This document shows positions 2-26,610 of a stretch of DNA of 61,112 bases, piece by piece. The notes below the pieces were generated by a model, which worked only from the letters and a program-made list of their open reading frames with translations, did not search any database and was not told the origin of the DNA. Position numbers and translations under genes: made by a program. Position 1 is the first letter of the stretch. Each line of letters begins with the position of its first letter. Source of the DNA: an uncultured Candidatus Saccharibacteria bacterium (GTDB lineage Bacteria; Patescibacteriota; Saccharimonadia; Saccharimonadales; SZUA-47); contig CAYQPN010000002.1 of the NCBI GenBank assembly GCA_964419675.1, positions 133,073 to 194,184 on the forward strand, written 5' to 3'.

Positions 2-790
2 ATGCGTATTGGCTTAATGGGTGCGGAAGCGGCAGACAGCGACGCATACCAAAGTGCTTTGGCATTGAGCAAAGCATTTTCAGGATCCGGGCCTCGTAGC
101 TCGGCAGTGAAGTTTAACCCTAAGACGGGTGAACTCGAACTAAAAAGAGGTGGCGTGAGCGCACTAAGAACTGGCGGTTCAGCAACAACTGCTCCAATGT
201 GGGAAGTAGTTGCCACATATACAGACGCTGCTCAGATCTTATTCCCTAACTTAAGGTATGCTGACAGGAATGAGTCGAAAATGCTTGAGAGCCAAGTAAA
301 AAGTGATGCTAGGGTACAGTACCTTGTTACCAAGGAAACTGACAAACTTCGCAAATCAAAAGGTAGGAATGCAACGAGTGCTGAGCTTGAAAAAATTGTC
401 GAACATGCGAAAGCAGAAGTTGCAATGCAGGCAACAGGGTTAGCAGACGAAGAAAAAGACAAAAGAACTCCACGGGACAGAAAAAAAGCTAGAGGCAAAG
501 TAAAGAAACAGGCTAAGAAAGAAAGGCGAAGTCGTAATAAACAATATGCCCAACGAGCTAAGGAGATAGCGAGAGAAGACATCTTCGAACGAGACGAGGA
601 AAAAAATGCGGCAGTAAGAAACCGGGTGCTTCAAGAGCGAGCAGCTAGAGCCAGAGCTGCGAAAGCACTCAGGTTTAGTAATATTTCAACCACACGAACT
701 AGTCGGGCAAATGTAAGAACGACAAAACACGGATCTAGCACAAGGCCAGTAAGAGTGGTTACTCCTAAAAGAAAATTAAGTAGTTATTAA
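2..790 (+). CDS. Partial CDS (5' end outside window). Hydrophilic protein with a very basic Lys/Arg-rich C-terminal half. Function unknown; first gene of the T4SS-like cluster.
   Basis: Frame is open from the window edge to the stop at 788-790. Tail reads KKARGKVKKQAKKERRSRNK. Same strand as, and closely spaced with, the following cluster genes. Confidence 0.5.
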   Translation: MRIGLMGAEAADSDAYQSALALSKAFSGSGPRSSAVKFNPKTGELELKRGGVSALRTGGSATTAPMWEVVATYTDAAQILFPNLRYADRNESKMLESQVKSDARVQYLVTKETDKLRKSKGRNATSAELEKIVEHAKAEVAMQATGLADEEKDKRTPRDRKKARGKVKKQAKKERRSRNKQYAQRAKEIAREDIFERDEEKNAAVRNRVLQERAARARAAKALRFSNISTTRTSRANVRTTKHGSSTRPVRVVTPKRKLSSY

Positions 791-844
791 TAAAGCATAA
801 GCTTACTTTATTGGAAGCGACAACTGACGTATACTTATGCTTGT

Positions 845-2092
845 ATGGCGGTTCACAAGGTACCTCAAGATGTTGAGGCTGAAGACAAGTTTTTAGGCCC
901 TCTTAGTTTCAAGCAATTTTTGTTTGGAGGAGGGACTGTTATTTCTGGCTACATGATTTTTCTTGGACTGTCTAAAAACATTTGGCCACTATCCGTGGTT
1001 TTCTTTTTTCCGTTTTTAGCTTTTGCAATGTTAACATTCCCCTGGAGTAAAGAACAGCCAACAGAGTTGTGGCTGGCAGCCAGAATCCGATTTTTTATTA
1101 AACCACGGCGTAGAATTTGGGACCAGACAGGCTTAAAAGACTTAGTAAACGTTACCGCTCCTATCCACCAAACCCACGCCTTAACTGATGGTTTGAGCGC
1201 TACAGACGTGCAGGGAAGATTGAGCGCCCTGGCAACAATGGTTGATAGCAGAGGCTGGGCTGTTAAGAACCATATGGGTTCTTCTGCAGTTCTTGAGGAG
1301 CTTGATGTAAGCGACCGCTTAGTAGATGCTCCCGTTATACGCAATAAAGCTGTGCAGCTGGAAGAAGAGACGTTACCAGATGTGCTTGATGACCATTCCG
1401 GCACAATAGCAAGGCAATTTGAAACAATGATTGATAAGTCTGAAACTAAGCACAAATCTGAGACTATGCGACTACTAGAAGAGGCAAGGGGCCATGCTGC
1501 ATCTGCGCAGACACAAGTTACCGAAGACCAGGTTGAGGCGTCTCCGCCACAACCGCAAGTTGATAATTCAAACAAATCTGAGACTCTACGCCTTGTTGAA
1601 GAAGCTAGACGTAAACCCGCTGAGGCCATTAGCCCCGTTAAACCTGCAACTAAAGAAAAACACGATAAGTCCAAAAGCCAGGATTTTTGGTTTAAGCAGG
1701 ATCAACAAGCACCCAGCGCACCCACTCTAGCCACATTTCAACAATCAGCCATAGTTACCCCCGGCGCACAAAGCACCTCCCCTCAATCCCCTCCGCCAGC
1801 TGGCGGACCTATTCCCCAGTCTTCTTCTGCCCTTTCCGATGATGATTTACTACAAAAAGTCCATGAAAAGCAGCGCAAAGATGCCCTGCAAATTCACGGA
1901 AGCCACATAAAAACCCTGCAACCCCTTGGGCAAACCACAAACCCTTCGCTAAATCCTACTGTTACAACACCTGTAAACCCTGATATACTAGCATTAGCGA
2001 ATAGCAATGACTTAAATGTTGAGACATTGGCACGTCAAGCTGGCAAGAATGATGACGAGCTGACAGACGAAGTGGTAGTCCCTCTTCGTTAA
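845..2092 (+). CDS. PrgI-family (VirB3-like) T4SS membrane protein with a long Pro/Gln/Ser-rich C-terminal extension
   Basis: N-terminus MAVHKVPQDVEAEDKFLGPLSFKQFLF is followed by two hydrophobic helices (TVISGYMIFLGL, LSVVFFFPFLAFAMLTF), which matches the PrgI-family pattern as I recall it. It lies directly upstream of the VirB4-type ATPase. The tail carries an internal KSET(M/L)RL(L/V)EEAR repeat. Confidence 0.6.
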   Translation: MAVHKVPQDVEAEDKFLGPLSFKQFLFGGGTVISGYMIFLGLSKNIWPLSVVFFFPFLAFAMLTFPWSKEQPTELWLAARIRFFIKPRRRIWDQTGLKDLVNVTAPIHQTHALTDGLSATDVQGRLSALATMVDSRGWAVKNHMGSSAVLEELDVSDRLVDAPVIRNKAVQLEEETLPDVLDDHSGTIARQFETMIDKSETKHKSETMRLLEEARGHAASAQTQVTEDQVEASPPQPQVDNSNKSETLRLVEEARRKPAEAISPVKPATKEKHDKSKSQDFWFKQDQQAPSAPTLATFQQSAIVTPGAQSTSPQSPPPAGGPIPQSSSALSDDDLLQKVHEKQRKDALQIHGSHIKTLQPLGQTTNPSLNPTVTTPVNPDILALANSNDLNVETLARQAGKNDDELTDEVVVPLR

Positions 2093-2116
2093 TTTTAAAA
2101 CGGGTGGTAAATATCG

Positions 2117-2911
2117 ATGAATCCAAACCAACAACAATTTAACCCAAATGGCGCACAAACTGTTGCTACTGTAGGGCCGGCCTCAAAATCTAACCCTAAC
2201 AGCACTCAAAATACCCTGTTAATAGCAGAGGTTAGGGACGGCATTGTTATCATGAACGATGGGAGCTTCAGGGCGGTAGTTGCTTGCCAAAGTATAAATT
2301 TTGACCTTATGAGCCCGACAGAGCGAGAAGCAGTTGAATATAGCTATCAGGGATTTTTGAATTCACTTTACTTCCCGATTCAAATTTTTGTACGTAGCCA
2401 AAAAGTAGATTTACGACCGTATATTGAAAAGCTAGACAAGATTCGCTCAGAACACGATAACATGTTGCTGGCCTTGCTTATGGAAGACTACATAAATTTT
2501 ATGAGTGATATCTCTCTGCAAACCAACATTATGGACAAGAAATTTTACGTCGTAATCCCTTTTTTCCAGACAGTAGACGCTCAAAAAGCAGTGCAAGCCA
2601 GCAAGAACTTCTTAACTGGTGTCTTTGGTAAAAAAGAAGAGAAGATTACTATTAATGAACAGGACTTAGAAAAAGGCAAAACCGAACTTCGAAATCGAAT
2701 CCAGGCGGTTATGGCAGGCTTACAGCAATGTGGGGTACAAAGCGTGCCCCTAGATACCCAAGAACTAATTGAACTTTATTATGATGCCTATAACCCAGAT
2801 ACGGCTACCCGGCAGAAGTTGCGTAATTTTAAAGGTATGGATACACCTGTTGTTACAAAAGGTGAAGGCCAAGCCTACCAACCGAATTTAGAGCGGGAGA
2901 TGGACAAATAA
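2117..2911 (+). CDS. T4SS-associated protein resembling the N-terminal region of Gram-positive VirB4/TrsE/PrgJ ATPases
   Basis: The segment DGSFRAVVACQSINFDLMSPTEREAVEYSYQGFLNSLYFPIQIFV resembles VirB4 N-domain patterns. Its stop overlaps the ATPase start by 1 nt (TAATG at 2909-2913). It has no Walker motifs of its own. Confidence 0.5.
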   Translation: MNPNQQQFNPNGAQTVATVGPASKSNPNSTQNTLLIAEVRDGIVIMNDGSFRAVVACQSINFDLMSPTEREAVEYSYQGFLNSLYFPIQIFVRSQKVDLRPYIEKLDKIRSEHDNMLLALLMEDYINFMSDISLQTNIMDKKFYVVIPFFQTVDAQKAVQASKNFLTGVFGKKEEKITINEQDLEKGKTELRNRIQAVMAGLQQCGVQSVPLDTQELIELYYDAYNPDTATRQKLRNFKGMDTPVVTKGEGQAYQPNLEREMDK

Positions 2912-4833
2912 TGTTTAAGAAAAAACAAACACTTGACCCGGTGGCAGCCGCACAAGCTCAGCAACTTCGAGAACAAATGGAGGTCCAGGCTGCTTTTCAA
3001 AAAGGGGTAACAGCCCTTCGCGACTTTATTGCTCCAGCCAGTTTAGAATTTGAAAGTAGCCAGTTTAAGATTGGAACGCGTATCGCACGCTCTTACTATG
3101 TATACGGTTATCCACGCCAAATTTATACTGGCTGGTTAAGTTCCATGGTTAATCTTGACGAGGTTATTGACCTTTCCATGTTTATTTACCCAGTTGAAAG
3201 TCAAGTAGTCTTAGAGAATTTGCGTAAAAAAGTTGGCCAACTTGAAGCGGGATTGCAAATTGATGCCGAGCGTGGCAAAGTTCGTGACCCGGGTAAGCAA
3301 GCGGCAATTGTTGATGCCGAGGAGTTACGTGACAAACTGCAGGTTGGTGAAGAGCGCTTCTTTAGATTTGGCCTATATTTTACAATTTATGCAAATTCAG
3401 ATGATGAAATGGAGTTTGTTACACATAAAGTTGAGAGTATCTTGGGCCAGCAACTGGTTTATAGTAAGCCGGCCAGCGCGCAACAGGAACAAGGTCTTAA
3501 TTCAACTATCCCCCAATTCACAGACCAGCTTCAGATTAGGCGCAATATGAATACCGGTGCAATTAGCACTAGCTTCCCGTTCACCAGCGCAGATTTGTCT
3601 CAAGACAATGGAATTTTATATGGTATCAACATGCATAACTCTGGTTTGGTAATTTTTGACAGGTTTAGCCTGGAAAACGGCAACAGTGTTGTGTTTGCAA
3701 AATCTGGTGCTGGTAAAAGCTTTACCGTGAAACTTGAAGCCCTAAGAAGCATGATGTTTGGCACAGAGGTATTTATAATAGACCCAGAAAACGAATATCA
3801 ACGGATGTGTGACGCGGTTGGTGGGGCATATGTCCGTTTAAGTTTGAACAGCGCAACCCGTATAAATCCTTTTGACTTACCTGCTGTTGTTGACTCCGAA
3901 GAAGCCGATAACGCACTTCGCAGTAATTTAATCACTCTTCATGGTTTATTGCGCCTAATGATGGGGGGCGCCCAAGCCCAAATGATGTCATCTCAAGGAG
4001 GTGGAGTAGCCATGCCGGCCTTAAGCCCAGCCGAAGAAGCCGACTTAGATACAGCTTTAATTGAAACTTATTCAAGAGCTGGGATAACTAACGACCCGCT
4101 AACTCACCGCTCACCCCCGCCAACAATAAATGATTTATATGACACTCTACTTCATATGGGTGGTTCAGGGCCACAATTGGCACAGCGTCTGCGTAAGTAC
4201 ACAACTGGGACGTTCGCGGGAATTTTCAGCCAGGCCAGCAACATAGACATTAACAACCCGTTGGTCGTATTTAACATCCGAGATCTTGAGGATGAATTAA
4301 GACCAGTGGCTATGTATATTGTCTTGAATTACATCTGGAACAAGACAAAATCAGATAGAAAAAAACGCATACTTATTGTTGATGAGGCCTGGCAACTCAT
4401 GAAATACGAAGATAGCGCTAATTTCTTGTTTAGCCTTGCCAAGAGAGCCCGTAAGTACAACTTGGGCATAACTACAATTACCCAAGATGTTGAAGATTTT
4501 ATGGGTTCACGCATGGGAAGGGCCATCGTGGCTAACGCTAGTATGCAAATCCTGCTTAAACAATCTAGTTCGGCTGTTGATGTTCTTGCAGACGTATTCA
4601 AGCTAACCAGCGAGGAGAAGAAGCGTCTCAGTCAATTCCCAGTTGGGCAAGGTTTGTTTTTTGCTGGCCAAAATCATGTACATATTCAAATTACCGCCAG
4701 CCCAACAGAAACAAATCTAATCACAACAAACCCTGATGAAGTGAAGCAAATAGATTTGCAAGCCCAGCAAGATCAACAAACCCAAGTAGACCTACAACAG
4801 CAGAGCCTTAATGAGCCGACAGAAGTTCAATAA
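2911..4833 (+). CDS. virB4: VirB4/TrsE/PrgJ-type type IV secretion ATPase
   Basis: Walker A is VFAKSGAGKSFTVK and Walker B is KKRILIVDEAWQLM. The N-domain segment ARSYYVYGYPRQIYTGWLSSMVNLDEVIDLSMFIYPV is typical of the VirB4 family. Confidence 0.85.
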   Translation: MFKKKQTLDPVAAAQAQQLREQMEVQAAFQKGVTALRDFIAPASLEFESSQFKIGTRIARSYYVYGYPRQIYTGWLSSMVNLDEVIDLSMFIYPVESQVVLENLRKKVGQLEAGLQIDAERGKVRDPGKQAAIVDAEELRDKLQVGEERFFRFGLYFTIYANSDDEMEFVTHKVESILGQQLVYSKPASAQQEQGLNSTIPQFTDQLQIRRNMNTGAISTSFPFTSADLSQDNGILYGINMHNSGLVIFDRFSLENGNSVVFAKSGAGKSFTVKLEALRSMMFGTEVFIIDPENEYQRMCDAVGGAYVRLSLNSATRINPFDLPAVVDSEEADNALRSNLITLHGLLRLMMGGAQAQMMSSQGGGVAMPALSPAEEADLDTALIETYSRAGITNDPLTHRSPPPTINDLYDTLLHMGGSGPQLAQRLRKYTTGTFAGIFSQASNIDINNPLVVFNIRDLEDELRPVAMYIVLNYIWNKTKSDRKKRILIVDEAWQLMKYEDSANFLFSLAKRARKYNLGITTITQDVEDFMGSRMGRAIVANASMQILLKQSSSAVDVLADVFKLTSEEKKRLSQFPVGQGLFFAGQNHVHIQITASPTETNLITTNPDEVKQIDLQAQQDQQTQVDLQQQSLNEPTEVQ

Positions 4834-4861
4834 CAGTGAAGATATTTAGGAAAAGTCGTTT

Positions 4862-7800
4862 ATGAATCTACTACTAAACAAACGACCCGGCGATTATGAC
4901 CCCGACGCCGATGAACAAAACAATCCTGTAAATAAAAGTGGGGGAGGCGATAGTTCTTGGAGTCCCGACGGCTATGATGAAGATAATAGCGACTACGACC
5001 AAGACAATCCAACAAGCAAAGCAAGAAATAACGTAAATCCCGCAGCGGCAGAGATTGGAGCAATGACTAATGATGGTAACAAAACTAAAACTTCTGACGC
5101 TGAAAATAAGCTAAGTGGTTCTGCAGGACTGGCTGGTTCTGATGTAGTTGGTAGAGGCTTCCCGATAAGTGCGGGGGCTACGCCAGTAGGGGTACTTTCG
5201 AAATTTAGAGCTATGTCAACAAAAAAGAAGGCAGTATCTGGCGGAGGAATTGCCGGAGTAGCAACTCTACTGTTTATGATGTTCTTTATGAGTATTGGGC
5301 CACTTAAACTTGTACACGTTGGTTCTTTGCTTGAGCGATTTCACTTTTCAGCAAACCAAGATTTTAACGATAACAATAGCATGAGCTTAATGAGATACAT
5401 CCGTAAAGGGCCTCAAAGCACACGACTTGGTAGAACATTTTCAAGGGTTGCAGAAAATCTAGATCTTAAAATAACTGATAATACAGGTCTTAGAGCTGTT
5501 TATGGGAAAGGAACTAGAAGACTAATTGGCTACGAGATACTAGACCCTGATAAAGCATCAGGATTATTAAAAGACATCGAGAAGGACGGTTATGACACCA
5601 AAGGTACGCTCGGTGATGGGAATTTTGACACACAAGGAAATAAAATTACGCCGAAGGGCAACAACTTTATCCCAGTAAAAGAAGATACCTTTAGAAGAAA
5701 AAGAGGGCTCCAGAGACTAATTATTGAAGGGGCCGACATAGACGGAGTTGCAGCTACGTTGTCTTCAAGATTACTAAGCAAATATGCTGGGGTTGGGTGG
5801 GCACCGTTACAGAACCTTCGGAGAAAAGGTACTGATAAGGCAGTTGACTTTTATTTTAAGGTCCGGGAGGATATGGCGAAGCGAAACTCAAAAGGCATTA
5901 GCCCAGGAGATGTCACGCCGGCAGGGACTGATGCTGACAATGACGGGAAAATTGACACCGACACTACTTCGGCTAATACTCCTGAGGCTGACGCTTCCAG
6001 GGCTGGGGCAGATGCTGTAGATGTAACAAAGAATATTGACCCTGCCAGCCCAGACTATAGTGTTAAGGTAGATGCTGCCAAAGCTAATGTAAACGCAAAG
6101 CTAAAAGGGGCGGCGGCGGCGGCAGCAATTGTAGGAGTTATTTGCGCTGTAAGATCAGTCGGGGATGCGGCAGAGAACACACAATACTTGAACGTTATAT
6201 TACCAATGATTCGTTTGTCGACAATGTATATGAGCGTGGCGTCACAAATAAAATCTGGCGAGAATTTGTCTAGTGACGAAATAGCGGTATTTGCTGAGAG
6301 CCTTAATGACCCCGTAACTGGTTTGGGTGCGCTGTCAGCTGCTCCCTTCGTTGCCTCAACAAATGGTCCAGCACCGGCTGGTACTAAATATGCTAGTGAT
6401 TTAGACCCTGATTTAAAACCGGGTAAACTCGGTGAGAAACCAGAATTTTTCGGTTTACTTGATAGCATCCCTGGTATAGGCACAATCTGCGGAATTGACA
6501 CCTTAATTGGTGGGCTACCAATTATTAAACAAATTTCTGATATATCTTCTTTTGGGGTTGATAAGATTCTAGGAGTTGTAGGGTTGTCGCAAGAAAAGCT
6601 TATTAGTTCCCTAGTCAATGTTTTGGCTGGTAGCAGTATCAACTTTTATGCTGTCGGGGCCGAGCTGGGGAACTACCTAATGTACGGCGGAAGACTAGCT
6701 GCCAACGTGTTGAACATCTCAACAGGAGCAAGAGAACTATCATCAGACGAAGAAATAGCCCTGTTAAACGAAGAGCAGCAAAAAATTATAAAGCAAAACC
6801 AGTCTAAGAGTTTTTTTGCCAGAATGTTTGATGTAAATGACGTTGATTCACTGGCCGGTAGAGCTGTAATTAATTCTCCAGTAACGATAAACTCTCTGGT
6901 TAACAAATTTTCTCAGATTAGACCAAGTAGCTTACTTTCGTCTCTAATTCCATCGGCTAAAGCCGGGGCAATAAATGGTGGATACTTTGACTATGGTTTT
7001 CCAGCCTATGGTCACAGTCTGGCAGAACAGGATGACCCAAGAATTCAAGACCCCTATGCAAATGCCGAGATTGTTGAGGCTGATATAGCCGATATTGATG
7101 CTAAGTTTGGTGATTGCTTTAGTAAAAGAATTGACCCGACAACTCTTGATCTGATTGACAACGAGCTTGCAAGAAGAGATGTAACTGCGGCAAAATGTAA
7201 TGATAAAACATCAGAACAACTCTTGCGATACCGTTTTTACCTTCCTGCAAGGGTTACTGAGACCACACTTGCTTGTTACGGAGGTGATCGGCAGTCATGT
7301 GATACTCTTGGTGTCCAAGCCGGGAGCGAAAATGATACAGCAGATGCCACTACCGCAAACTCAACTGAACCAGTTGCGGTTGAAGACCTTAACTGTGAGG
7401 GGCTTCTTACGCTTGATTCTAGGTATAAGTACAGCTCGAAGGGGGCTATAGAACTTGATGCAGAAGGCATGCCGGTAAAAGCCTCTTTGCGACCATACAG
7501 CAGCAGAGTAAAGGAAGTGTGCGCACAACGAAAAGCAGAATGTATATCCGGAAACATGCCTTATACTCAAAAAGCATTGTGTGAAGGTTTTAAATTTTCA
7601 GAAACATTCTACGGAGCTAGTTATGGTAGGTTCACAGCTTTAACCCAAGAATGGTATGGACTTAAGGCAAAACGAAACCCTGAGCATAATGCTGAAGGGT
7701 GGAGCGCCAACTGGAGACCTGGACTCAACGAAGATAACTTATTTGGCTGCACAGGGCTAATAACAATATCTGTTTTTAAGGCATACGATCCTACTATAGA

Positions 7801-8077
7801 TTCCAGTGAGTTCCTTGGGTCGCCAAAATTCACCCGTCTCAAAAGTATGGATGAGTTACAGCCAGGAGATTTCATGGGCAATAATTCATTAGGACACTGG
7901 GTAATTGTTGCTGCCCCTCCTGCAAATGGAAAAGTAATAGTTTATCACTCATCAGGGTTTCCAAAAGTAGCTGGTTTTGGAGAAATATCAATTATTGACG
8001 ACAACAAGGATGGAGATAATGTTGACGATGGATGGAATAAGGGTAGATGGATGAGATGGAAAGAAAGCACCCCATAA
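4862..8077 (+). CDS. Giant polytopic membrane protein with a C-terminal papain-like (NlpC/P60- or CHAP-like) putative wall hydrolase domain. A VirB6/PrgK-type role is inferred.
   Basis: Acidic low-complexity N-terminus. Hydrophobic segments GIAGVATLLFMMFFMSIGPL, AAAAAAIVGVICAV, ILPMIRLSTMYMSVA and IPGIGTICGIDTLIGGLPII. C-terminal Cys/His arrangement FGCTGLITISVF ... GHWVIVAAPP ... VYHSSG. Confidence 0.5.
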   Translation: MNLLLNKRPGDYDPDADEQNNPVNKSGGGDSSWSPDGYDEDNSDYDQDNPTSKARNNVNPAAAEIGAMTNDGNKTKTSDAENKLSGSAGLAGSDVVGRGFPISAGATPVGVLSKFRAMSTKKKAVSGGGIAGVATLLFMMFFMSIGPLKLVHVGSLLERFHFSANQDFNDNNSMSLMRYIRKGPQSTRLGRTFSRVAENLDLKITDNTGLRAVYGKGTRRLIGYEILDPDKASGLLKDIEKDGYDTKGTLGDGNFDTQGNKITPKGNNFIPVKEDTFRRKRGLQRLIIEGADIDGVAATLSSRLLSKYAGVGWAPLQNLRRKGTDKAVDFYFKVREDMAKRNSKGISPGDVTPAGTDADNDGKIDTDTTSANTPEADASRAGADAVDVTKNIDPASPDYSVKVDAAKANVNAKLKGAAAAAAIVGVICAVRSVGDAAENTQYLNVILPMIRLSTMYMSVASQIKSGENLSSDEIAVFAESLNDPVTGLGALSAAPFVASTNGPAPAGTKYASDLDPDLKPGKLGEKPEFFGLLDSIPGIGTICGIDTLIGGLPIIKQISDISSFGVDKILGVVGLSQEKLISSLVNVLAGSSINFYAVGAELGNYLMYGGRLAANVLNISTGARELSSDEEIALLNEEQQKIIKQNQSKSFFARMFDVNDVDSLAGRAVINSPVTINSLVNKFSQIRPSSLLSSLIPSAKAGAINGGYFDYGFPAYGHSLAEQDDPRIQDPYANAEIVEADIADIDAKFGDCFSKRIDPTTLDLIDNELARRDVTAAKCNDKTSEQLLRYRFYLPARVTETTLACYGGDRQSCDTLGVQAGSENDTADATTANSTEPVAVEDLNCEGLLTLDSRYKYSSKGAIELDAEGMPVKASLRPYSSRVKEVCAQRKAECISGNMPYTQKALCEGFKFSETFYGASYGRFTALTQEWYGLKAKRNPEHNAEGWSANWRPGLNEDNLFGCTGLITISVFKAYDPTIDSSEFLGSPKFTRLKSMDELQPGDFMGNNSLGHWVIVAAPPANGKVIVYHSSGFPKVAGFGEISIIDDNKDGDNVDDGWNKGRWMRWKESTP

Positions 8078-8685
8078 TGGATATGAGGCGTAAATTATTT
8101 ATACGATTGTCAATTATAGGGATTCTTATTGTTGGTTTTGTAGTTTTTGCGATTTTGAACGGAAAAACGGACGAGCCCCGGAATATAGCAACAACTGACA
8201 CCAGTGGTAGGGCTACATTAAACCTTTCTGTTAGCGGTCCGGGAAAGAGTCTTAATATTACTTCGGATGTTGACGGATTTTTGGGTAATTATACTTTAGG
8301 TACTGTAGACCTAAAACTTTCAAAGCGCATTCAGACTTTAACTATAGCCGGAGATACCGTTGATCGTTCTACTTTATTTGTAGACATGACTGAAGGCGAC
8401 AAATCAATAACTACAGAAACAAAAGATAAGGGTTCGAGTGCTCAGATAATATCAAACGACTCCGGAAGCCCCCAAGATGTGAGCATTGACAGCTGCTCTT
8501 ACTACGGAAACAATACCTGGCTTACGTGTGTCGTAGCTAACCCAGATTTCTTAGAAACAGTAGTATACCAGCTCGAAAACGGTGCTTGGAAATATGTTAT
8601 TAGCGGTAGTTATTTAACTTACGAAGATTTTGTCGACATTGGGGCCCCCCAAGATCTACTTAGTAAAATAGAGAGGAATAATTAG
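8047..8685 (+). CDS. Membrane-anchored extracytoplasmic protein, unknown function (T4SS-like cluster)
   Basis: Single N-terminal TM helix LFIRLSIIGILIVGFVVFAIL. The in-frame ATG at 8077 overlaps the upstream stop (TAATG) and is the more likely start. Confidence 0.5.
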   Translation: MDEMERKHPIMDMRRKLFIRLSIIGILIVGFVVFAILNGKTDEPRNIATTDTSGRATLNLSVSGPGKSLNITSDVDGFLGNYTLGTVDLKLSKRIQTLTIAGDTVDRSTLFVDMTEGDKSITTETKDKGSSAQIISNDSGSPQDVSIDSCSYYGNNTWLTCVVANPDFLETVVYQLENGAWKYVISGSYLTYEDFVDIGAPQDLLSKIERNN

Positions 8686-10664
8686 TGTTTAAACACATCC
8701 ACCTCTCTAGTGTTTATTTGTTGATACTAGCTCTAATTTATGTGTTTTTTAGTACCGGGTCGGTGCTAGCATTAAGCGATAGACAAAAAGAACTTATCTC
8801 TCAGGGAATATATTATTATGATCCTGAGATCGACCCATGTGCGAATATTGGTATCCCTACGACTACCGGGGGGTCTGTTACTGCTGGCTCAAAAATTTAC
8901 ATACTAGGTGACTCTATTACAAACCAATCTGCTGAAGAAATTAGAACCGAGTTTAGCGGAAAGCAGTTAGAGATAACTTCTATTAACGCAAGTAGCGGCA
9001 GAGCCATTTCCTATCACAGCACAGATCCAGAAGGCCAAACTGGGATTGATGCCGTGGCTGCAGATATAGACATAATAAGTTCATCCGACGTAGCTTTGGT
9101 TGCGCTAGGTACTAATAGTGGTAACGAGGATCTTAGTGTCCAAATACCGGCGCTGGTTACAGAAATGCGCGCTGCAAACCCTGGAATAGCTATATACTGG
9201 GTTAACTTATTTTCACTATCAAACACAACCACTGTCAGCAAGAATGGAATAATAACAAAATTGTCTTCTGAAAATAAATATAAGGTCATCGATGCGTTCT
9301 CTGCAGGTATCGAACTGGGAGAAGACAAAACCCATCCAACTATAGCCGGTAACACGACATTCGCTAAGACTTTAGCCTCTGGCTTATTATCGGGTGGCAA
9401 CACCGGCATAGTAGGTTCTGGCGGCGTAGGATCAAGCGGCTATAATCCAATCTCGCTTACTTATCCTTCGTTCCCCAATAAAGACGAGATTGTCACTAAT
9501 TTAAAAAAATACATTTCTGAAAGTTTTTCCAGTTCGCCATTTGCATCATCTCCACAGTATGTTGATTATATTTTCAGTGCGAGTGAACAAAAGAATGTTA
9601 ACCCGCTACTAATTTTATCTGTTGCAAAACAAGAAAATGGTTTTGGTTCAGGAAAAAGTGGCGCGGTAGAAAACAATAACTATTTCGGCATGAAAGAAAG
9701 TGACAATGAAAAAGTACAGTTGTATGGTCCATATATAAAGTTTGGTACTCCTGAAGAGGGTATTGAGTTTTTTATAGGGCGAGTAGAGGCTCATGTTAAA
9801 ACTCCTTCAGGCAATTATTCTGAGCTGACTAATTTTTATGAGTACCTTTCTATACATCAAATGGGATTTATTGCTTATCCAAACGAATACCCAGCTCAGG
9901 CGCAAGGTGCAAATGCCACCCCTAAATACCTGATTGGTGACCCGGTTATGGGGGGAGTTCTTGTTAGTTGGGATACTACAGCAAACGATAATAGAACCGA
10001 CGGGTACAAAGGGAAAACGTATAACCCAGGTATATATTTCTCAAATTCAATTGTATTTATTAACAAAATAACGGGATTAAGTCTGTCGCCAGTCCCTGTC
10101 AGGGGTACGTCTACCGATACAGCCTGTCAGCAAGTAGAGCCTGGTGTATCTGGTTTAGTAGACTCAACTGGATATGCTTTTCCGCTTGAACCGCAAACAA
10201 AAAGTGTCGGCGGTGTTACTGATAACCAGACACAGACAAGACACCACGACAAGACACCGGCATTTGATCTCTTTAGTACTGACAGTGCGGATGTTTATGC
10301 GATATTTGGAGGTACCCCAACATTTATAAACACTTCCTTTAAAGGTATTGAGGGCTGCAGCACTATCCAGTTTTTAGCGGATGATGGGTTCTATTATTGG
10401 TATGGGCACCTTAAAAACGTAGTTGTTTCTCAAGGGGTGCATATAGAGGTTGGGACAAAAATGGCTGAAATTGCCGATAAAACGAACTTCGGCTCGGATT
10501 GTTGGGGAGGTGGACCTCACCTACATATTGACAGAGGATGCTCAATTAACGGTGTCCCTCAAACCGGTGGTAGGGACGAGTGCCGAGATCCTGATTTTAT
10601 CCCCTTTCTGAGCTCTTTGTATAGCAGGCTACCTAGTAATTCAGAAGGTGTGAAGAGGTATTAG
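8685..10664 (+). CDS. Secreted three-domain peptidoglycan hydrolase: SGNH/GDSL esterase, lysozyme/glucosaminidase-like domain and M23 metallopeptidase
   Basis: GTG start overlaps the upstream TAG (TAGTG). Signal anchor LSSVYLLILALIYVFF. GDS block KIYILGDSITNQS. The central NPLLILSVAKQENGFGSG resembles a muramidase catalytic-Glu region. M23 motifs are HHDKTPAFDL, YYWYGHL and GPHLHID. Confidence 0.65.
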   Translation: MFKHIHLSSVYLLILALIYVFFSTGSVLALSDRQKELISQGIYYYDPEIDPCANIGIPTTTGGSVTAGSKIYILGDSITNQSAEEIRTEFSGKQLEITSINASSGRAISYHSTDPEGQTGIDAVAADIDIISSSDVALVALGTNSGNEDLSVQIPALVTEMRAANPGIAIYWVNLFSLSNTTTVSKNGIITKLSSENKYKVIDAFSAGIELGEDKTHPTIAGNTTFAKTLASGLLSGGNTGIVGSGGVGSSGYNPISLTYPSFPNKDEIVTNLKKYISESFSSSPFASSPQYVDYIFSASEQKNVNPLLILSVAKQENGFGSGKSGAVENNNYFGMKESDNEKVQLYGPYIKFGTPEEGIEFFIGRVEAHVKTPSGNYSELTNFYEYLSIHQMGFIAYPNEYPAQAQGANATPKYLIGDPVMGGVLVSWDTTANDNRTDGYKGKTYNPGIYFSNSIVFINKITGLSLSPVPVRGTSTDTACQQVEPGVSGLVDSTGYAFPLEPQTKSVGGVTDNQTQTRHHDKTPAFDLFSTDSADVYAIFGGTPTFINTSFKGIEGCSTIQFLADDGFYYWYGHLKNVVVSQGVHIEVGTKMAEIADKTNFGSDCWGGGPHLHIDRGCSINGVPQTGGRDECRDPDFIPFLSSLYSRLPSNSEGVKRY

Positions 10665-10666
10665 TT

Positions 10667-11338
10667 ATGATGAATAAACGCTTGATTAAATTTGTTGTGG
10701 TCTTTGTATTATTGTTGATTAGTCTTCTGTTGCTTATTGCCAAACCACAAGATATTGACCAGCCCCCAGAAGAGGGTACGAATACAGACTACTCTGTGGC
10801 TGCCAGAATTGTTGATGGAGAAAACCTATTCTACCAGCTAGGCGGTGGGTCACGTTTTGATTCTCTCGCTAAAGATCTATATACATACGCAAAATCTAAT
10901 TATGAAAATTATAAGAATAATCCCGATAAGGTTGTTGGCTTTAAGGTAGAAGAGATAACCGAAAATGATCTCGATATTACGATTTATGGACGATACGGAT
11001 CATCAAAAAATAGAATTCAGATTCAAATTAAGCTCCTTAATAATAATAGGCAACACGTCTCTGTTGTAGACACAGTCACAAAAATAAATATCGACGAACA
11101 GCTAGCCTCTAATAATAGTAGAAATGAATATATTGCGACTCTACCAAAGACTGAAAATGGATACAGTGTCGAATATGTAGAAAAAACCGACTCAGTGGTT
11201 ATTAATTTATACGATAGAGATCCAGCACTAGCAGAACAAGCATACAAAGATTTGTTAAATATTGTTGGTGCTGAGTATTCAGAAGGTCAGCTTCTAATAG
11301 TAAATTTTCCTCCGCCGAGTTTTGGCGAAGATTTTTAG
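10667..11338 (+). CDS. Membrane-anchored extracytoplasmic protein, unknown function; last gene of the T4SS-like cluster
   Basis: N-terminal TM helix LIKFVVVFVLLLISLLLLIA. It starts 2 nt after the upstream stop. Its 3' end overlaps the convergent recF by 4 nt. Confidence 0.45.
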   Translation: MMNKRLIKFVVVFVLLLISLLLLIAKPQDIDQPPEEGTNTDYSVAARIVDGENLFYQLGGGSRFDSLAKDLYTYAKSNYENYKNNPDKVVGFKVEEITENDLDITIYGRYGSSKNRIQIQIKLLNNNRQHVSVVDTVTKINIDEQLASNNSRNEYIATLPKTENGYSVEYVEKTDSVVINLYDRDPALAEQAYKDLLNIVGAEYSEGQLLIVNFPPPSFGEDF

Positions 11339-12381
11339 CTTTGTTGCATAGGAATTATGTTGCAGTTTGTGAAATGATCAATAACAACATCTGCGTCGGT
11401 AGTTGTGATGAACGTTTGGTAGTCTTGCAAGGCTTCGGCCAAACTTCTGCGCCTTGCTCCGTCTAACTCACTAAAAACGTCGTCCAGTAGCAGTATGGGC
11501 TTTTTGCCAGCTTCTTGGCCAACCAGCTCAAGCTCAGCAATTTTTAACGCTAGTATTATGCTTCTAACTTCTCCGCGAGAAGCAGTTTGGCGCACGTCAG
11601 AATTCTTTAGTTCTATATATAAATCATCACGATGTGGGCCAGCTCCGGTAAAACCTCTTTGAATGTCTTTTTCGACATTACTGCGCAGATACGCCATTAA
11701 CTGGTCCCCGTAGTTATTGATGGTTAGTTTTGAAGCGTAGCTAATTGATAGCTTTTCTTTAGAGCTACTTATTTTCTTGTAGTGAGAGTCGCAAACCAGC
11801 TGAAGTTTTTCTACCAACTCACGCCGGGCAGAAACAATTGCTCCAGCCTTATCTACTAGTTGAACGTCCCAGACAAATAGTGTGTCTGGGGAAGGGTTAT
11901 TAGACTTTAAAAGACGATTACGCTGGGCTAGGGCTCGTTTGTATGAAGTTAGAGTTTGTTTATACCCTGGCTTGATAGTTGATAGTAACGTATCTAGATA
12001 GTTCCTTCTGCGTTCTGGTTCACCACCAAGAAGCAACATGTGTTCCGGCTCAAAAACCACAACAGGTAAGCTTTTTTGTGGACTCATTCTATATTTTGAT
12101 TCGCCATCAATTTCGATAAGTTTTTGTTTTTCAGATTGCAACTTTATAACTCTTGTCCCGTCGCTAGTTAGGGCCTCCAGCCTGGCCCATTTTTCGCCAT
12201 TTTTTAGCATGTCTTTATCTGAAGCCTTAAAACTATTCCCGCAACAAATTACATGAAGTGCTTCCAATAAATTAGTTTTTCCACTAGCATTAGGCCCAAC
12301 AATAATGTTCACGCCCGGCTCAAAACCAAATAGGCCGTTTTTATACGACCTAAAATTAGTTAGCTCCAGCGTCTGCAACAT
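11335..12381 (-). CDS. recF: DNA replication and repair protein RecF
   Basis: MLQTLELTNFRSYKN, Walker A GPNASGKTNLLEAL, and C-terminal ILLLDDVFSELD. Canonical dnaA-dnaN-recF order. Confidence 0.93.
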   Translation of the reverse strand: MLQTLELTNFRSYKNGLFGFEPGVNIIVGPNASGKTNLLEALHVICCGNSFKASDKDMLKNGEKWARLEALTSDGTRVIKLQSEKQKLIEIDGESKYRMSPQKSLPVVVFEPEHMLLLGGEPERRRNYLDTLLSTIKPGYKQTLTSYKRALAQRNRLLKSNNPSPDTLFVWDVQLVDKAGAIVSARRELVEKLQLVCDSHYKKISSSKEKLSISYASKLTINNYGDQLMAYLRSNVEKDIQRGFTGAGPHRDDLYIELKNSDVRQTASRGEVRSIILALKIAELELVGQEAGKKPILLLDDVFSELDGARRRSLAEALQDYQTFITTTDADVVIDHFTNCNIIPMQQS

Positions 12382-12440: not shown

Positions 12441-13532
12441 CTAGCTCTTAACCGGCATAATGACGTGTAAATAGTCATCATTGTCTGGGTCGGTCAAAAC
12501 GCAAGGATCTAATTTACCGTTAACATTTATAGTGATTTTTGTGCCATTAAATGCGCCCAGTGCGTCAAGTATGTATCTTGAGTTCATGGTAATAACTGCA
12601 TCACCGGTAACCTCAGCTTCAGCTGTAGCATTATTTTCACCAACTTGAGACGCAATAGATTTGATAGAAATTTGTTTTGCTTCCTGCTCAATCGCAACAG
12701 TAACTCCACCGGCCGCTTCACGGGCAAACAAGCTTGAAACCTTTGTAACTTCTTGGAGGTTTTGCTTGTTAAGTGTGGCTGTGGTTGCGTAGTCTTTTGG
12801 TAAAAGCTTGCGGTAATCTGGGTATTTTCCTTCGATTAAACGAGTAACGAGTTCTACTGAACCAATATTAAATCTGGCTTGTTGCTCATCATATTTCATA
12901 ACAACCGTCTCTACGCCGTCATGCATAACTCTTAGCGCATCTTGGAGTGAGTGAGCGGGTAGAAGCAAGGAAACTTCTCCTTTATGCTTCATAATTCTTC
13001 GCTCAGCTAGGCGATATGAGTCAGTTGCAGCACCGTATAAAAAACCACCCTCTGTGTGTAAATACAGCCCTGTTAGCACTGGTCGAGCTTCGTCGTTAGA
13101 TGCGGCAAACAATACCTGCTGAAGAGTGTTTTTAAAATCTTGAGCTCTTATGTTTAGCTCCTCGCCTTTTTCAATTGTTGGCATTTCTGGAAAATCATCG
13201 GCGGGCGTACCGTTGATTGTTGAGCTGTGGTGTTCGGTTGTTAGTTTTAGCTTATTTTCTTCAACCTCTAGGCTAAGTGTGCCGGTAGGAAGAGAGGAGA
13301 CATAATCTTGCATTAGACGAGCTGGAACAGTGATAGAGCCTTCTTTTTTTATCTTTGCTCCGATAGTTTCGCTGATGGCTACGTCAAGGTTGGTTGCCGC
13401 AACAAGAAGTTGGTTGTTGATAGTCTTGATTAAAACGTTTGAGAGAATTGGTAATGATCCTCTAGAGCTGGCAATTCTTGAAACGGTTGATAGGGCTCTG
13501 GCTAGATTTTCTTGGGTTACGCTAAGTTTCAT
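12441..13532 (-). CDS. dnaN: DNA polymerase III beta sliding clamp
   Basis: MKLSVTQENLARALSTVSRIASSRGSLPILSNVLIK. Length is 363 aa. Located between dnaA and recF. Confidence 0.93.
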   Translation of the reverse strand: MKLSVTQENLARALSTVSRIASSRGSLPILSNVLIKTINNQLLVAATNLDVAISETIGAKIKKEGSITVPARLMQDYVSSLPTGTLSLEVEENKLKLTTEHHSSTINGTPADDFPEMPTIEKGEELNIRAQDFKNTLQQVLFAASNDEARPVLTGLYLHTEGGFLYGAATDSYRLAERRIMKHKGEVSLLLPAHSLQDALRVMHDGVETVVMKYDEQQARFNIGSVELVTRLIEGKYPDYRKLLPKDYATTATLNKQNLQEVTKVSSLFAREAAGGVTVAIEQEAKQISIKSIASQVGENNATAEAEVTGDAVITMNSRYILDALGAFNGTKITINVNGKLDPCVLTDPDNDDYLHVIMPVKS

Positions 13533-13785
13533 TACTATGATTCTCCTAAGTTATTTATTTAAGTATTTAGTTTCTATAGGGTCTGAGTACAATGGGTATA
13601 AACCGCCAATTATAGGTGTTAAAAACGAAGCCTGGCTGGGTATAAGTTGGGTGTATATGACTCGTATAAAAAGAGCACAACCCTCAATTGCAAATTTTTG
13701 GGTGTTTATAAATAATGAATTAAACACAGTTTGTACCACAATGTTTAAAAGTTGTACTACAAATACACACAGCTTTTGCACAGCC

Positions 13786-15159
13786 CTAAACATACAGTCT
13801 CCCACGAAGCTCAACAAGCTGTTGGCGGACTGTTGCATCAAGATTTAACTCTTTTTCTATCTTATCGACAGAGTGTATGGCAGTTGTATGGTCTTTTCTG
13901 CCTAGCTCACGAGCAATCTTAGGAAAACTCATATGAAGCTCGCTCCTTAACATATACATTGCAATTTGGCGCGGGTAGACAATATCTTTATCCCGCTTTG
14001 GGCTAAGAATGTCGTCTAATGAAACAGAGTAATAACGGGCAGTTCTCTCAATAATTTGCTTAGGTGATACGTGTTTTGGACGAGATTTTGCGCTGCCCAA
14101 AAGCGTTTGGGCAACCTGAAGGTCTGGCTCAAGGTCACGCATCTCACAAAAAGCCAGAAGCTGGTTTAACACACCTTCAAGCTCTCTAATATTAGTGGTA
14201 ATAAGATTAGCTAAAAACTCAACTACGTCTGGCTCAAGCTTTAAATTGTGGTTATGCGCTTTAGTTTGGATGATTGCGCAACGGGTTTCAAAGTCCGGAA
14301 TCTGCATATCAATCGACATACCCCAAGCAAAACGAGATCTCAAGCGCTCCTCGAGAGTCGGTATGTCTTTTGGTGGCTTATCGCTACTAATAATAATCTG
14401 CTTGTTTGCCTGGTGTAGGGCGTTAAAGGTATGAAAAAACTCTTCCTGGGTCTTCTCTTTACCAGCAATAAACTGAATGTCATCAATAATCAGCACATCG
14501 GCGCTTCTATAGTGCCCCGCAAAATCAGTATTTTTCTTATATCTAATTGCATCCAAAAACTCCTGCACGAACTGCTCGGTCGATAAATAAACAACATGTG
14601 CGTCAGGGTTTTTCTTCAAAATTTCATTACCTACAGCCTGAATAAGGTGTGTTTTTCCTATACCAACACCACCGTAAACAAACAACGGGTTATATTTATC
14701 CCCAGGGCTGTTCGCAATAGCTTGGCAAGCCGCATAAGCCAGTTCGTTTCCTGAACCAACCACAAAATTATCAAATGTATATCTGTCGTTTAAACCACGC
14801 CGATAGGTGTGGGTCAACGACGACACCGATTTCTTAGGAGCAGGTTTGTTGTTGGCGGCGGAGTTGTCCAAAACAACCGTATCATTAGTACTTCTTTTTG
14901 AAGGCGAACCAGTGGAGTAAATTTTAAACTCCAATACCTCCGGCCTAACTCCATTTTTATCTAGCACGTCTAAAATGAGCTCTTGGTATTTACGCTCCAA
15001 CTGTTGCTTTATAAAAATATTCGGCACACCTATAACAACAATCGAACTGTCGGCCTGGAGTAGGGTGGTGTTTTTAAACCAAGTTACAAAGTTCCCATGC
15101 GAAACAGTAAGTTCGATTTCACCTAATACTGCCTGCCATAGGCGTGTGTTATCTTGCAC
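13786..15159 (-). CDS. dnaA: Chromosomal replication initiator DnaA
   Basis: AAA+ Walker A GGVGIGKTHL, Walker B LIIDDIQF, and domain IV signature KDHTTAIHSVDKI. A DnaA-box cluster lies immediately upstream. Confidence 0.95.
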   Translation of the reverse strand: MQDNTRLWQAVLGEIELTVSHGNFVTWFKNTTLLQADSSIVVIGVPNIFIKQQLERKYQELILDVLDKNGVRPEVLEFKIYSTGSPSKRSTNDTVVLDNSAANNKPAPKKSVSSLTHTYRRGLNDRYTFDNFVVGSGNELAYAACQAIANSPGDKYNPLFVYGGVGIGKTHLIQAVGNEILKKNPDAHVVYLSTEQFVQEFLDAIRYKKNTDFAGHYRSADVLIIDDIQFIAGKEKTQEEFFHTFNALHQANKQIIISSDKPPKDIPTLEERLRSRFAWGMSIDMQIPDFETRCAIIQTKAHNHNLKLEPDVVEFLANLITTNIRELEGVLNQLLAFCEMRDLEPDLQVAQTLLGSAKSRPKHVSPKQIIERTARYYSVSLDDILSPKRDKDIVYPRQIAMYMLRSELHMSFPKIARELGRKDHTTAIHSVDKIEKELNLDATVRQQLVELRGRLYV

Positions 15160-15451
15160 CGTTGTTTATTCCCTCAACTTACTTTGTCTGTAGTTAATAG
15201 AATAGTACACAACGCAGGACTTTTCCACAGCCAATTACACAACACTTAGAAAAACCAGAATCTTTGCATGAGAGGTGGCTTTATCCACAGTCTCAAATCT
15301 CATCTGTAAAAACTGTGGAGAAAGACTGTGGAAGAGTGGATAAACTCTATCCTAAATTTTTATTTTTGTAAAATAAATAACAAAGATATTTTTTGAGCTC
15401 CAAATATCCACCTTGAAAAATGCCCTCATCAGTGGTAGAATAAACCTAAGT
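15160..15451. other. Candidate chromosomal replication origin (oriC) between dnaA and rpmH
   Basis: DnaA boxes: perfect TTATCCACA at 15281-15289 and TTTTCCACA at 15221-15229. Reverse-orientation boxes: TGTGGAGAA at 15314-15322, TGTGGAAGA at 15327-15335 and AGTGGATAA at 15335-15343. A further box ATATCCACC lies at 15404-15412. An AT-rich tract at about 15353-15396 could serve as the unwinding element. Confidence 0.75.
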
Positions 15452-15589
15452 ATGCCAAAGCGAACATTCCAACCAAAAAAGCGCAAGCGATCACGCGTTC
15501 ACGGATTTATTGAAAGAATGTCTACCCGTACAGGTAGAAAAGTTCTAAAATCACGTCGAGAAAAAGGTCGCAAAAAAATCAGCGCCTAA
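15452..15589 (+). CDS. rpmH: 50S ribosomal protein L34
   Basis: Not in the ORF track because it is only 45 aa. My own translation is [45 protein letters not shown]. Canonical rpmH-rnpA-yidC order. Confidence 0.93.
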
Positions 15590-19270: not shown

Positions 19271-19485
19271 GCTTCATCCTCACGAGGGTCATCCCAAAAT
19301 TTAGCAAGGCTAGCCTCGCTCATTATCGCCAACTCTCTATTAGTAAGTTCATCTTCTGGTAATATTCTCAAGCTTCCGTCTTCAACCACGAGCCTCGCTT
19401 TTTTTTCTAAACCAACCTGCCTTAGGATCGATTTAGGGATTCTTATTCCCTGAGAATTACCAATTTTAACTATATTTATATCCAT
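19252..19485 (-). CDS. AbrB/MazE/SpoVT-family antitoxin
   Basis: MDINIVKIGNSQGIRIPKSILRQVGL is the swapped-hairpin AbrB motif. Length is 77 aa. It lies directly upstream of the toxin. Confidence 0.8.
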   Translation of the reverse strand: MDINIVKIGNSQGIRIPKSILRQVGLEKKARLVVEDGSLRILPEDELTNRELAIMSEASLAKFWDDPREDEAWKHLQ

Positions 19486-25483: not shown

Positions 25484-25527
25484 GATTACATTTTAACACT
25501 TACGTTCTCAGAATACTCGGGGTGCGC

Positions 25528-26609: not shown

Positions 26610-26610
26610 A

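Follow-up and report, generated by a model that had tools for sequence, protein, structure and literature searches.

A chromosomal type IV secretion gene cluster beside recF-dnaN-dnaA in an uncultured Saccharibacteria bacterium, with a conserved motor and variable C-terminal hydrolase domains

The closest described counterpart of the gene cluster reported here is the 'apparent T4SS (SEML1_0006-0019)' of Southlakia epibionticum (ML1), a type IV secretion system (T4SS) which is nearest to Gram-positive conjugative systems, includes essential pilins and has no recognisable coupling or relaxase proteins (Wang et al., 2023, Cell, PMC10633639). Our cluster occupies nucleotides (nt) 2-11338 of a 61,112-nt stretch of DNA from an uncultured Saccharibacteria bacterium (contig CAYQPN010000002.1); the whole stretch is referred to as the window, and nt 2-11338, with genes O1-O8, as the module. 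In ML1, dnaA, dnaN and recF are SEML1_0001, 0002 and 0003, followed by the convergent SEML1_0004, which encodes an exported protein of 250 amino acids (aa). The order continues with SEML1_0005 (212 aa, PEGA domain), SEML1_0006 (644 aa, two lysozyme-like domains and a cysteine proteinase), SEML1_0007 (1114 aa, C-terminal VanY-like DD-peptidase), SEML1_0008 (VirB4), SEML1_0009, SEML1_0010 (PrgI), SEML1_0011, SEML1_0012 (NTF2-like), SEML1_0013 (TrbL/VirB6-like) and the pilins SEML1_0014-0019 (Wang et al., 2023). Transposon sequencing scored SEML1_0004-0011 and 0013-0019 as essential and 0012 as not essential (Wang et al., 2023). The transposon fitness assay proposed in a preliminary description of the window has therefore already been published for S. 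epibionticum, and the orthologues of O2-O8 are all essential in it.

A survey of 2,474 Patescibacteria virB4 genes described an MPF-FATA-related clade in which TrsD and PrgI adjoin virB4 and relaxases are generally absent, reported hydrolases downstream of virB4 in ML1, and attributed the proximity to dnaA/dnaN to gene dosage (Quinonero-Coronel et al., 2025, Microb Genom, PMC12102498). The same account of the T4SS is given in a 2025 FEMS review, which speculates on signal exchange or uptake through the pilus (PMC12857230).

Compared with these systems, nt 2-11338 is very probably the origin-proximal half of a Patescibacteria-clade chromosomal T4SS of the Saccharimonadales, gene-for-gene orthologous to SEML1_0004-0010. 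The gene order of ML1 mirrors that of the window, neither cluster contains a relaxase or coupling protein, and SEML1_0004 (3738-4487) and recF (2737-3741) of ML1 share the same 4-nt overlap as their counterparts in the window. Besides belonging to another species, the ML1 cluster differs in detail. SEML1_0007 ends in a VanY-like domain, whereas O5 ends in an NlpC/P60-CHAP-like one; SEML1_0006 combines two lysozyme-like domains with a cysteine proteinase, whereas O7 combines an M23 domain with probable SGNH and GH73 domains; and the PEGA gene follows the O7 equivalent in ML1 but lies between O5 and O7 in the window. Equivalents of SEML1_0011-0019, including the NTF2-like 0012, fall outside the window, which is cut at base 1. 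With the clade surveyed by Quinonero-Coronel et al. (2025) the window shares the VirB4 type, TrsD and PrgI, the absence of a relaxase, the vicinity of dnaA/dnaN and, 3' of virB4, hydrolases with M23 and similar domains; nothing essential differs, while the O5 core family and the C-terminal shuffling described below are not mentioned in that survey. The idea of a T4SS of Gram-positive type that was kept for host interaction, and not for transfer of a plasmid or an integrative and conjugative element (ICE), which the preliminary description had put forward, agrees with the published view (PMC10633639, PMC12102498, PMC12857230). That interpretation is thus supported and already in print, and the window adds one more orthologous copy.

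Among conjugative T4SSs, the MPF-FATA systems (pGO1/pSK41 Trs, the CTn2 CD1110 type and pCF10 Prg) show the clearest likeness. The VirB4 of the window passes the CD1110 cut-off, PrgI/VirB3 is common to both, pGO1 has the same split arrangement of TrsD and VirB4, and PrgK, TraG, TrsG and CwlT are multi-domain wall hydrolases analogous to those of the window. In contrast to these systems, the window cluster has no type IV coupling protein (T4CP), relaxase, oriT or adhesin, and the system is chromosomal, fixed beside the origin and essential in ML1. In addition, VirB2-like pilins accompany the clusters of relatives, while Gram-positive systems are without them. Since neither the window nor the flanks of the relatives yielded a T4CP or a relaxase, the system is regarded as using conjugation-derived parts and is not filed as a conjugation system. 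To our knowledge, no T4SS other than this one has been found essential to its own carrier bacterium. The locus represents a central unsolved part of how ultrasmall epibionts live off their hosts, and its importance has already been recognised. What our analysis adds is a 61-locus picture of an ultra-conserved motor coupled to hypervariable, domain-shuffled wall-degrading genes, together with the assignment of a rare type of C-terminal domain to a fold and an O5 scaffold family that always comes after virB4.

Gene layout, motor genes and chromosomal position

All eight tightly packed open reading frames (ORFs) that had been listed for nt 2-11338 are present on the + strand at the positions given for them. 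O3 and O4 are joined by TAATG at 2909-2913, a 1-nt overlap, O5 and O6 by TAATG at 8075-8079, and O6 and O7 by TAGTG at 8683-8687. Overlaps of 1 nt had been claimed at 2911, 8077 and 8685, and the corresponding TAATG and TAGTG sequences do occur; the overlap at 8077, however, depends on the start chosen for O6, as it requires the ATG at 8077, whereas the first in-frame ATG, at 8047, gives a 31-nt overlap with O5. The remaining gaps within the module measure only 54, 24, 28 and 2 nt, and O1-O8 therefore likely form a single operon. Scans of promoters and terminators gave results at or near shuffle expectation. At the other end, the stop codon of O8 (11336-11338, +) overlaps that of the convergent recF (11335-11337, -), so that the module adjoins recF-dnaN-dnaA exactly as had been described.

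PrgI/VirB3, TrsD and VirB4 constitute the conserved cytoplasmic-membrane energising module of the system, and hidden Markov models support both the PrgI and the VirB4 assignments made previously. O2 (845..2092, +), the orthologue of SEML1_0010, is a PrgI/VirB3-like membrane protein that matches Pfam PF12666 above the cut-off (E=1.5e-11, 45 bits, cut-off 27). Its PrgI domain spans aa 5-91 (nt 857-1117), with a transmembrane (TM) segment at aa 46-64, and is followed by a long low-complexity tail. O4 (2911..4833, +), the orthologue of SEML1_0008, is a VirB4-type ATPase of the MPF-FATA/CD1110 family. It exceeds the equivalog cut-off of 325 bits for NCBIfam conju_CD1110 (NF045971; E=5e-107, 359 bits) and matches Pfam P-loop_TraG (E=4.4e-28), and both quoted motifs were located, the Walker A motif KSGAGKSF at aa 264-271 (nt 3700-3723) and the Walker B motif ILIVDEAW at aa 487-494 (nt 4369-4392). 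O3 (2117..2911, +; 264 aa), the orthologue of SEML1_0009, had been regarded as lacking a recognisable domain. This is not the case: it is a TrsD/TraD-like protein (NCBIfam TrsD NF041427, E=6.5e-8) corresponding to a separate VirB4 N-terminal domain, and its orthologue in L001, the nearest relative of the window, is PF26593 TraC-like. On the 752 positions of the CD1110 VirB4 model O3 aligns to 11-129 and O4 to 173-735, indicating that VirB4 is split into two genes. The sole PHROGs match of O3, to a terminase, was rejected as spurious.

Relatives of VirB4 were collected from one genome per GTDB species, and at least 546 were found. The best 80 of these come from metagenome-assembled genomes (MAGs) whose titles read Saccharibacteria, Saccharimonadales, Patescibacteria group or, for some, simply 'bacterium', and their VirB4 proteins share 82-92% aa identity with O4. 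PrgI-TrsD-VirB4, followed by 3-5 same-strand genes and then by convergent recF-dnaN-dnaA, was observed in 60/60 related loci with a near-full recF match. A 61st locus, L012, retains dnaN and dnaA but only a fragment of recF, and so stands outside this synteny count. The preliminary description's view of a conserved neighbourhood instead of an island therefore holds, as the position is fixed in all 60 of these loci and the distribution is not patchy.

Conservation across the related loci follows a steep gradient: VirB4 85-92%, DnaA 58-84%, TrsD 63-81%, DnaN 54-74%, RecF 44-67% and PrgI 31-49% identity, with prgI in the same position in those loci that extend far enough upstream. In each of the roughly 60 species that were compared, VirB4 was more conserved than DnaA, which points to an unusually strong constraint for a secretion ATPase. 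An ICE would show the reverse of this pattern, in which the ATPase is better conserved than the replication initiator and sits at a fixed place in the chromosome.

Upstream of prgI, as read in 52 loci, relatives contain an optional gene of 250-600 aa, a VirB6-like gene of 800-1200 aa and 5-8 small divergent pilin genes, which in L001 include four PF18895 T4SS_pilin genes. The VirB6-like gene and the pilins occupy this place in L001 and about 50 further relatives. Beyond the pilin array, L025 and L031 carry Hsp20 and then a ComFC-like phosphoribosyltransferase, a pair that in L025 is backed by PDB matches. Among the ORFs of the window that were scanned with Pfam, none matched a relaxase, T4CP or integrase family, as had been reported, and no such gene was found beside the cluster in relatives, where the far flank was read in L025 and L031. 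Upstream of the module, where such genes had been named as those to look for, the relatives carry the VirB6-like gene and the pilins instead. Given this arrangement, the window holds only the origin-proximal half of the T4SS cluster. The module is not complete, being cut at base 1, and calling it 'minimised' was an overstatement, for the full cluster comprises about 14-16 genes including VirB2-like pilins.

The cut runs through O1 (2..790, +). An ORF is present there, as listed, but it is not a complete gene: its 262 codons are the 3' fragment of a longer, fast-evolving gene of the T4SS cluster. The encoded sequence is rich in Ala, Arg and Lys, has no TM segment and gave no family match in profile searches against Pfam, NCBIfam and PHROGs. 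Its sole relative is a 600-aa ORF (L013:6066-7868), in which about residues 413-470 align to O1 aa 36-95, so that O1 corresponds to this ORF from about residue 380 on. Judged by its position, O1 is the optional 250-600 aa gene found between the VirB6-like gene and prgI in relatives.

The O5 family, its predicted wall-degrading domains and its neighbours

The product of O5 is 1071 aa long and consists of a core (4862..7393, +; aa 1-844) and a C-terminal domain (7394..8077, +; aa 845-1071). The core is membrane-anchored, specific to the Saccharibacteria T4SS and the positional orthologue of SEML1_0007. Iterated profile searches delimited its conserved part to aa 10-844 and placed the family directly 3' of virB4 in 61/61 loci; in the compared loci a dedicated O5 scaffold family invariably follows virB4, with identities of 23-42%. 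The protein had been called polytopic, and this can be maintained only in part: one clear TM segment (aa 126-148) and one probable one (aa 416-434) are supported, while further candidates are only weakly hydrophobic stretches. The core has no match in Pfam or PDB profile searches apart from low-complexity matches to ribosomal protein L17 in PDB, which were rejected. A VirB6/TrbL identity was also considered and discarded, as an hhalign comparison with the upstream VirB6-like family gave a probability of 0.9%, no Pfam or PDB homology was found, and the core has 1-2 clear TM segments versus at least five expected.

The C-terminus of the same proteins is highly variable. Clustering of the last 230 aa of the O5 family yielded 19 unrelated types in 60 species. 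Pfam searches with the last 330 aa of 60 O5 orthologues detected VanY (22), GDSL (4), M14 (2), CHAP (2) and Exo_endo_phos (2), and single cases of alginate lyase, Amidase_2, GDPD, DUF2817, M74, NlpC/P60, M23 and Amidase_5; about one third had no Pfam match in this region. When species pairs were grouped by DnaN identity (50 to 90%), 14-19% of them shared a type, and sharing was no commoner among close relatives than among distant ones. In the nearest relative, L001 (VirB4 92%, DnaA 84%), an M14 domain takes the place of the window's NlpC/P60-like one. Domains from this pool recur in the remaining genes from virB4 to recF, with Phage_lysozyme2 (39), GDSL (19), C39_2 (11), GH73 (10) and M23 (10), as well as SLT, NlpC/P60, amidases, VanY and GH3. 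Judging from these domain inventories, catalytic domains evidently move between O5 and O7 proteins.

In the window, O5 aa 845-1071 were assigned to the NlpC/P60-CHAP papain-like fold, and the domain is a putative enzyme, predicted to be a cysteine peptidase or amidase. An exhaustive search with the C-terminal 240 aa in 1.84 billion representative proteins returned 14 relatives, nearly all of them at the C-termini of O5-like proteins of 1000-1400 aa, whereas a word-index homologue search gave no match. A putative triad of Cys963 (motif FGCTGL, nt 7742-7759), His1012 and His1029 is conserved in a 14-sequence alignment, which shows the Cys in FGCTGL/LECSGL, a His in GHW/GHV, a third His/Glu and four further conserved Cys. 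The latter suggest an extracytoplasmic location. An AlphaFold model from the single sequence reached a predicted local distance difference test score (pLDDT) of 35; modelled again with the 14-row alignment in AlphaFold2, the domain reached 86.4. The best Foldseek matches of this model in the PDB (phi812 baseplate 9eug_A, MepS, Acd24020, SagA and LysK CHAP) are all NlpC/P60 or CHAP enzymes, with probabilities of 0.9-1.0 and modest E values of 1.4e-3 to 0.1. The window sequence has no Pfam NLPC_P60 or CHAP match of its own, the 14 relatives give weak ones (CHAP in 5/14, best 7.7e-4; NLPC_P60 in 3/14, best 2.2e-3), and the best PDB profile match is 7cfl_A with E=0.42. Alignment, structure model and Foldseek thus agree with the Cys/His hydrolase-like domain that had been proposed for the end of this protein. 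The domain would share with MepS, Acd24020, SagA, LysK CHAP and the phi812 lysin the order Cys...His...polar and the predicted papain-like fold, and it carries an 'xCSGL'-type nucleophile motif as in NlpC/P60 and CHAP hydrolases. It differs from them in an extra Cys-rich N-terminal subdomain.

The three genes that follow O5 all encode proteins that are exported or anchored. O7 (8685..10664, +), the positional orthologue of SEML1_0006, encodes a secreted or anchored wall hydrolase of 659 aa with three domains: a probable SGNH esterase (nt 8904-9350, aa 74-222; GDSL_2, 19.6 bits, below the Pfam cut-off of 32.9), a probable GH73 glucosaminidase (nt 9573-9800, aa 297-372; 26.3 bits, below the cut-off of 30.2) and an M23 endopeptidase (nt 10263-10529, aa 527-615; 32.4 bits, above the cut-off of 28.7). 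The M23 domain also matches a PHROG metallo-endopeptidase (2e-6) and the PDB M23 entry 9gy1_A. All catalytic motifs are present, namely GDS, DxxH, the Glu in AKQENGFG, HxxxD (HHDKTPAFD) and HxH (HLH). Of the SGNH, lysozyme-like and M23 composition that had been read for this protein, M23 is confirmed by passing the Pfam cut-off, and GH73 and SGNH are probable, being below it but with intact motifs. The family occurs in 54/61 loci, and SGNH and GH73 domains are common in its positional orthologues.

O6 (8047..8685, +) encodes an N-terminally anchored exported protein (TM aa 19-37) with a PEGA/CarboxypepD_reg-like beta-sandwich, its family profile matching the N-terminal beta-sandwich of 9gbc_A (E=1e-4). 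It is probably the equivalent of SEML1_0005, which is also a PEGA protein of 212 aa; the family was found in 13/61 loci at varying positions. O8 (10667..11338, +), which closes the operon and corresponds by position to SEML1_0004, likewise encodes an N-terminally anchored exported protein (TM aa 6-24). Its family is present in 19/61 loci, always near recF; O8 has no Pfam match, and its family profile matched nothing in PDB. In relatives O6 and O8 are detectable mostly by profile only, and the identity of O7 is only partial.

A possible connection was noted between O6 and the C-terminal domain of O5. O6 is present in 8/11 loci that have the NlpC/P60-like type of the window, versus 5/50 loci that lack this type (Fisher p=5.5e-5, kinship ignored), a count in which several of the domain matches cover the Cys-rich subdomain only. 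O6 lies directly 3' of the protein with the NlpC/P60-like end in 7/8 loci that have both, an arrangement noted for the window, L013, L014, L021, L030, L051 and L058. A strict partnership was rejected, as five loci have O6 without the domain, and the association was kept as a lead; the two may represent a partner or immunity-like pairing.

From these patterns, O5 could be a T4SS-associated scaffold that displays an interchangeable C-terminal 'warhead' against the host envelope, the domains being exchanged as cassettes that determine host range and match the host wall; we offer this only as a tentative proposal. If the variable domains do match host cell-wall chemistry, they would allow the host range of uncultured Saccharibacteria to be approached from sequence. 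By analogy only, the arrangement resembles Rhs, CdiA, LXG and the Tae/Tge effectors of the type VI secretion system, in which a conserved N-terminal delivery or anchor part is combined with a variable C-terminal enzyme. As in polymorphic toxin systems, the variable domains of O5 are independent of phylogeny and a small exported protein often lies directly downstream. However, there is no homology to these systems, the O5 domains are mostly ordinary wall-processing enzymes and not known toxins, O5 appears to be membrane-anchored and not secreted, and an immunity role of the neighbour is hypothetical. No description of such domain shuffling was found in PMC10633639, PMC12102498, PMC12857230 or full-text literature searches, which is not proof of absence, and the combination of a conserved O5 core with an interchangeable envelope-degrading C-terminus may be a new observation.

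Proposed function and competing explanations

In the mechanism that we favour, the VirB4/TrsD/PrgI motor would power the building of a channel that bears a pilus and crosses the wall of the epibiont itself. The VirB6-like protein and the VirB2-like pilin array, whose genes would sit just upstream of base 1, would complete the machine. The fast-evolving, domain-shuffled hydrolases would cut peptidoglycan, be it that of the epibiont, of the host or of both, and thereby let the channel or pilus reach the host envelope, and the machine would then move proteins or other macromolecules between epibiont and host, with no conjugation of DNA. Several points weigh against this proposal. No VirB6-, VirB8- or VirB2-like gene was recognised inside the window, and the presence of VirB6- and VirB2-like genes upstream is deduced from relatives only; as to a VirB8-like (NTF2-fold) component, O6 resembles a PEGA beta-sandwich, nothing was matched by O8, and SEML1_0012, the NTF2-like gene of ML1, belongs to the part of the cluster beyond the window. 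Neither fold nor family could be recognised for the O5 core, O1 or O8. Finally, a T4CP homologue may be encoded elsewhere, as is the case in ML1, where a non-essential one lies far from virB4 (PMC12102498).

The explanation that competes best with such an outward or two-way machine is that the same apparatus works inward, taking up DNA, nucleotides, lipids or other host molecules in the manner of H. pylori ComB or archaeal Ced. We consider this a minority possibility, though a genuine one. The lack of relaxase and T4CP means that no recruitment of export-type substrates is evident; Patescibacteria are devoid of de novo nucleotide, amino-acid and lipid synthesis (PMC10633639, PMC12857230), and the FEMS review explicitly considers uptake through the pilus as a speculation (PMC12857230). 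Genes of DNA uptake and processing also appear in the neighbourhood, since the T4SS of the class ABY1 lies beside comF, recG and radA (PMC12102498), the ComFC-like gene flanks the cluster in L025 and L031, and comEC is present in the window at 53790-55253. VirB4 has weak P-loop matches to CedB and CedD, but these cover the P-loop only and are far below the cut-offs, and no import-specific component was identified. Moreover, deletion of comEC in S. epibionticum abolishes competence and leaves viability unaffected (PMC12857230, citing Wang et al., 2023), and the essentiality of the T4SS therefore cannot be due to ComEC-dependent DNA uptake.

It is improbable, in our view, that O5-O8 are autolysins for the wall growth and division of the bacterium itself, which share the operon without being secretion parts. 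Operons that bring together unrelated essential genes do occur in reduced genomes, housekeeping autolysins are the typical setting of M23, NlpC/P60, GH73 and VanY domains, and a division role would be equally compatible with essentiality in ML1. As a rule, however, such autolysins are conserved, whereas O5-O8 are the fastest-evolving genes of the region, with catalytic domains swapped between close relatives, and the O5 core lies directly 3' of virB4 in 61/61 loci. Furthermore, Gram-positive conjugative T4SSs regularly have multi-domain VirB1-like hydrolases of their own, PrgK, TraG and CwlT being examples.

A decayed or domesticated ICE still serving DNA transfer, with mobilisation genes outside the window, could be argued from the conjugative MPF-FATA/CD1110 family of VirB4, the conjugation-plasmid families of TrsD and PrgI and the hidden upstream side, but is very hard to uphold and is largely refuted by synteny and conservation: every related locus with sufficient flank has the cluster at this place beside recF-dnaN-dnaA, VirB4 exceeds DnaA in conservation, the far boundary in L025 and L031 consists of Hsp20 and the ComFC-like gene, the GC content of the cluster (0.40-0.46) is not distinct from that of neighbouring housekeeping genes, and relaxases are rare in Patescibacteria (109 in 103 genomes; PMC12102498).

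Origin neighbourhood and other genes of the window

Downstream of the module, Pfam searches identified recF (11335-12381, -), convergent with the T4SS operon, dnaN (12441-13532, -) and dnaA (13786-15159, -), and these are followed by rpmH (15455-15589) and then rnpA, yidC and jag/khpB, so that the gene order around 15 kb is a textbook origin neighbourhood. Between dnaA and rpmH, four DnaA boxes lie within 123 bp (15221..15343), one perfect TTATCCACA and three with one mismatch; this cluster is a probable oriC or dnaA promoter region. Across the whole window DnaA boxes are not enriched (22 found versus 16.4 expected), and GC skew tracks gene orientation and does not locate the origin. If the cluster of boxes is oriC, the T4SS operon would be transcribed towards the origin, head-on to the fork, and dnaA-dnaN-recF co-directionally with it; the relative orientation of the T4SS and dnaA-dnaN-recF is kept in all relatives and in S. 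epibionticum.

Two further details concern these genes. A small ORF between dnaN and dnaA (13551-13841, -; 96 aa), with an 89-aa counterpart called in L001 (18273-18542), has no Pfam match and, in the window, as called from the first start codon, overlaps the 3' end of dnaA. In L012, at about 16916, only 15% of the length of recF is detectable beside intact dnaN and dnaA genes, and recF may have been lost or degraded there; the gene was scored non-essential in S. epibionticum (PMC10633639).

About 4 kb from the putative origin, overlapping genes at 18938-19485 (-) encode a MazE (77 aa, PF04014) and MazF (110 aa, PemK) toxin-antitoxin pair. At 19561-22383 (+) lies the gene of a 940-aa secreted protein in which an SGNH/GDSL esterase domain is combined with thrombospondin type-3 repeats and a TM anchor at the C-terminus, a further large surface hydrolase that is encoded apart from the T4SS operon. 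The region at about 27500-40500 has a low GC content (36-37% versus 41-44% elsewhere) and contains genes for a Wzm/Wzt-type ATP-binding cassette (ABC) exporter of polysaccharide, for two FkbM methyltransferases and several GT2/GT4 glycosyltransferases, and for unknown proteins; it has the look of a surface-glycan cluster that was possibly exchanged horizontally. Additional sugar-nucleotide and glycosyltransferase genes were found at 17826-18941, 23014-27561 and 43305-51738. No tRNA or tmRNA genes were found in the window.

The comEC gene mentioned above (53790-55253) is flanked by genes encoding a protein with a GmrSD_C-type nuclease domain (53061-53789) and a 540-aa protein with lamin-tail domains (55349-56971), both candidates for an accessory role in DNA uptake, the lineage being naturally competent. 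Two separate proteins of 137 aa are also encoded in this part of the window. The one at 51735-52148 (+) is essentially a LexA-type DNA-binding domain in which no peptidase domain was detected, and the one at 59295-59708 (-) contains a SET domain.

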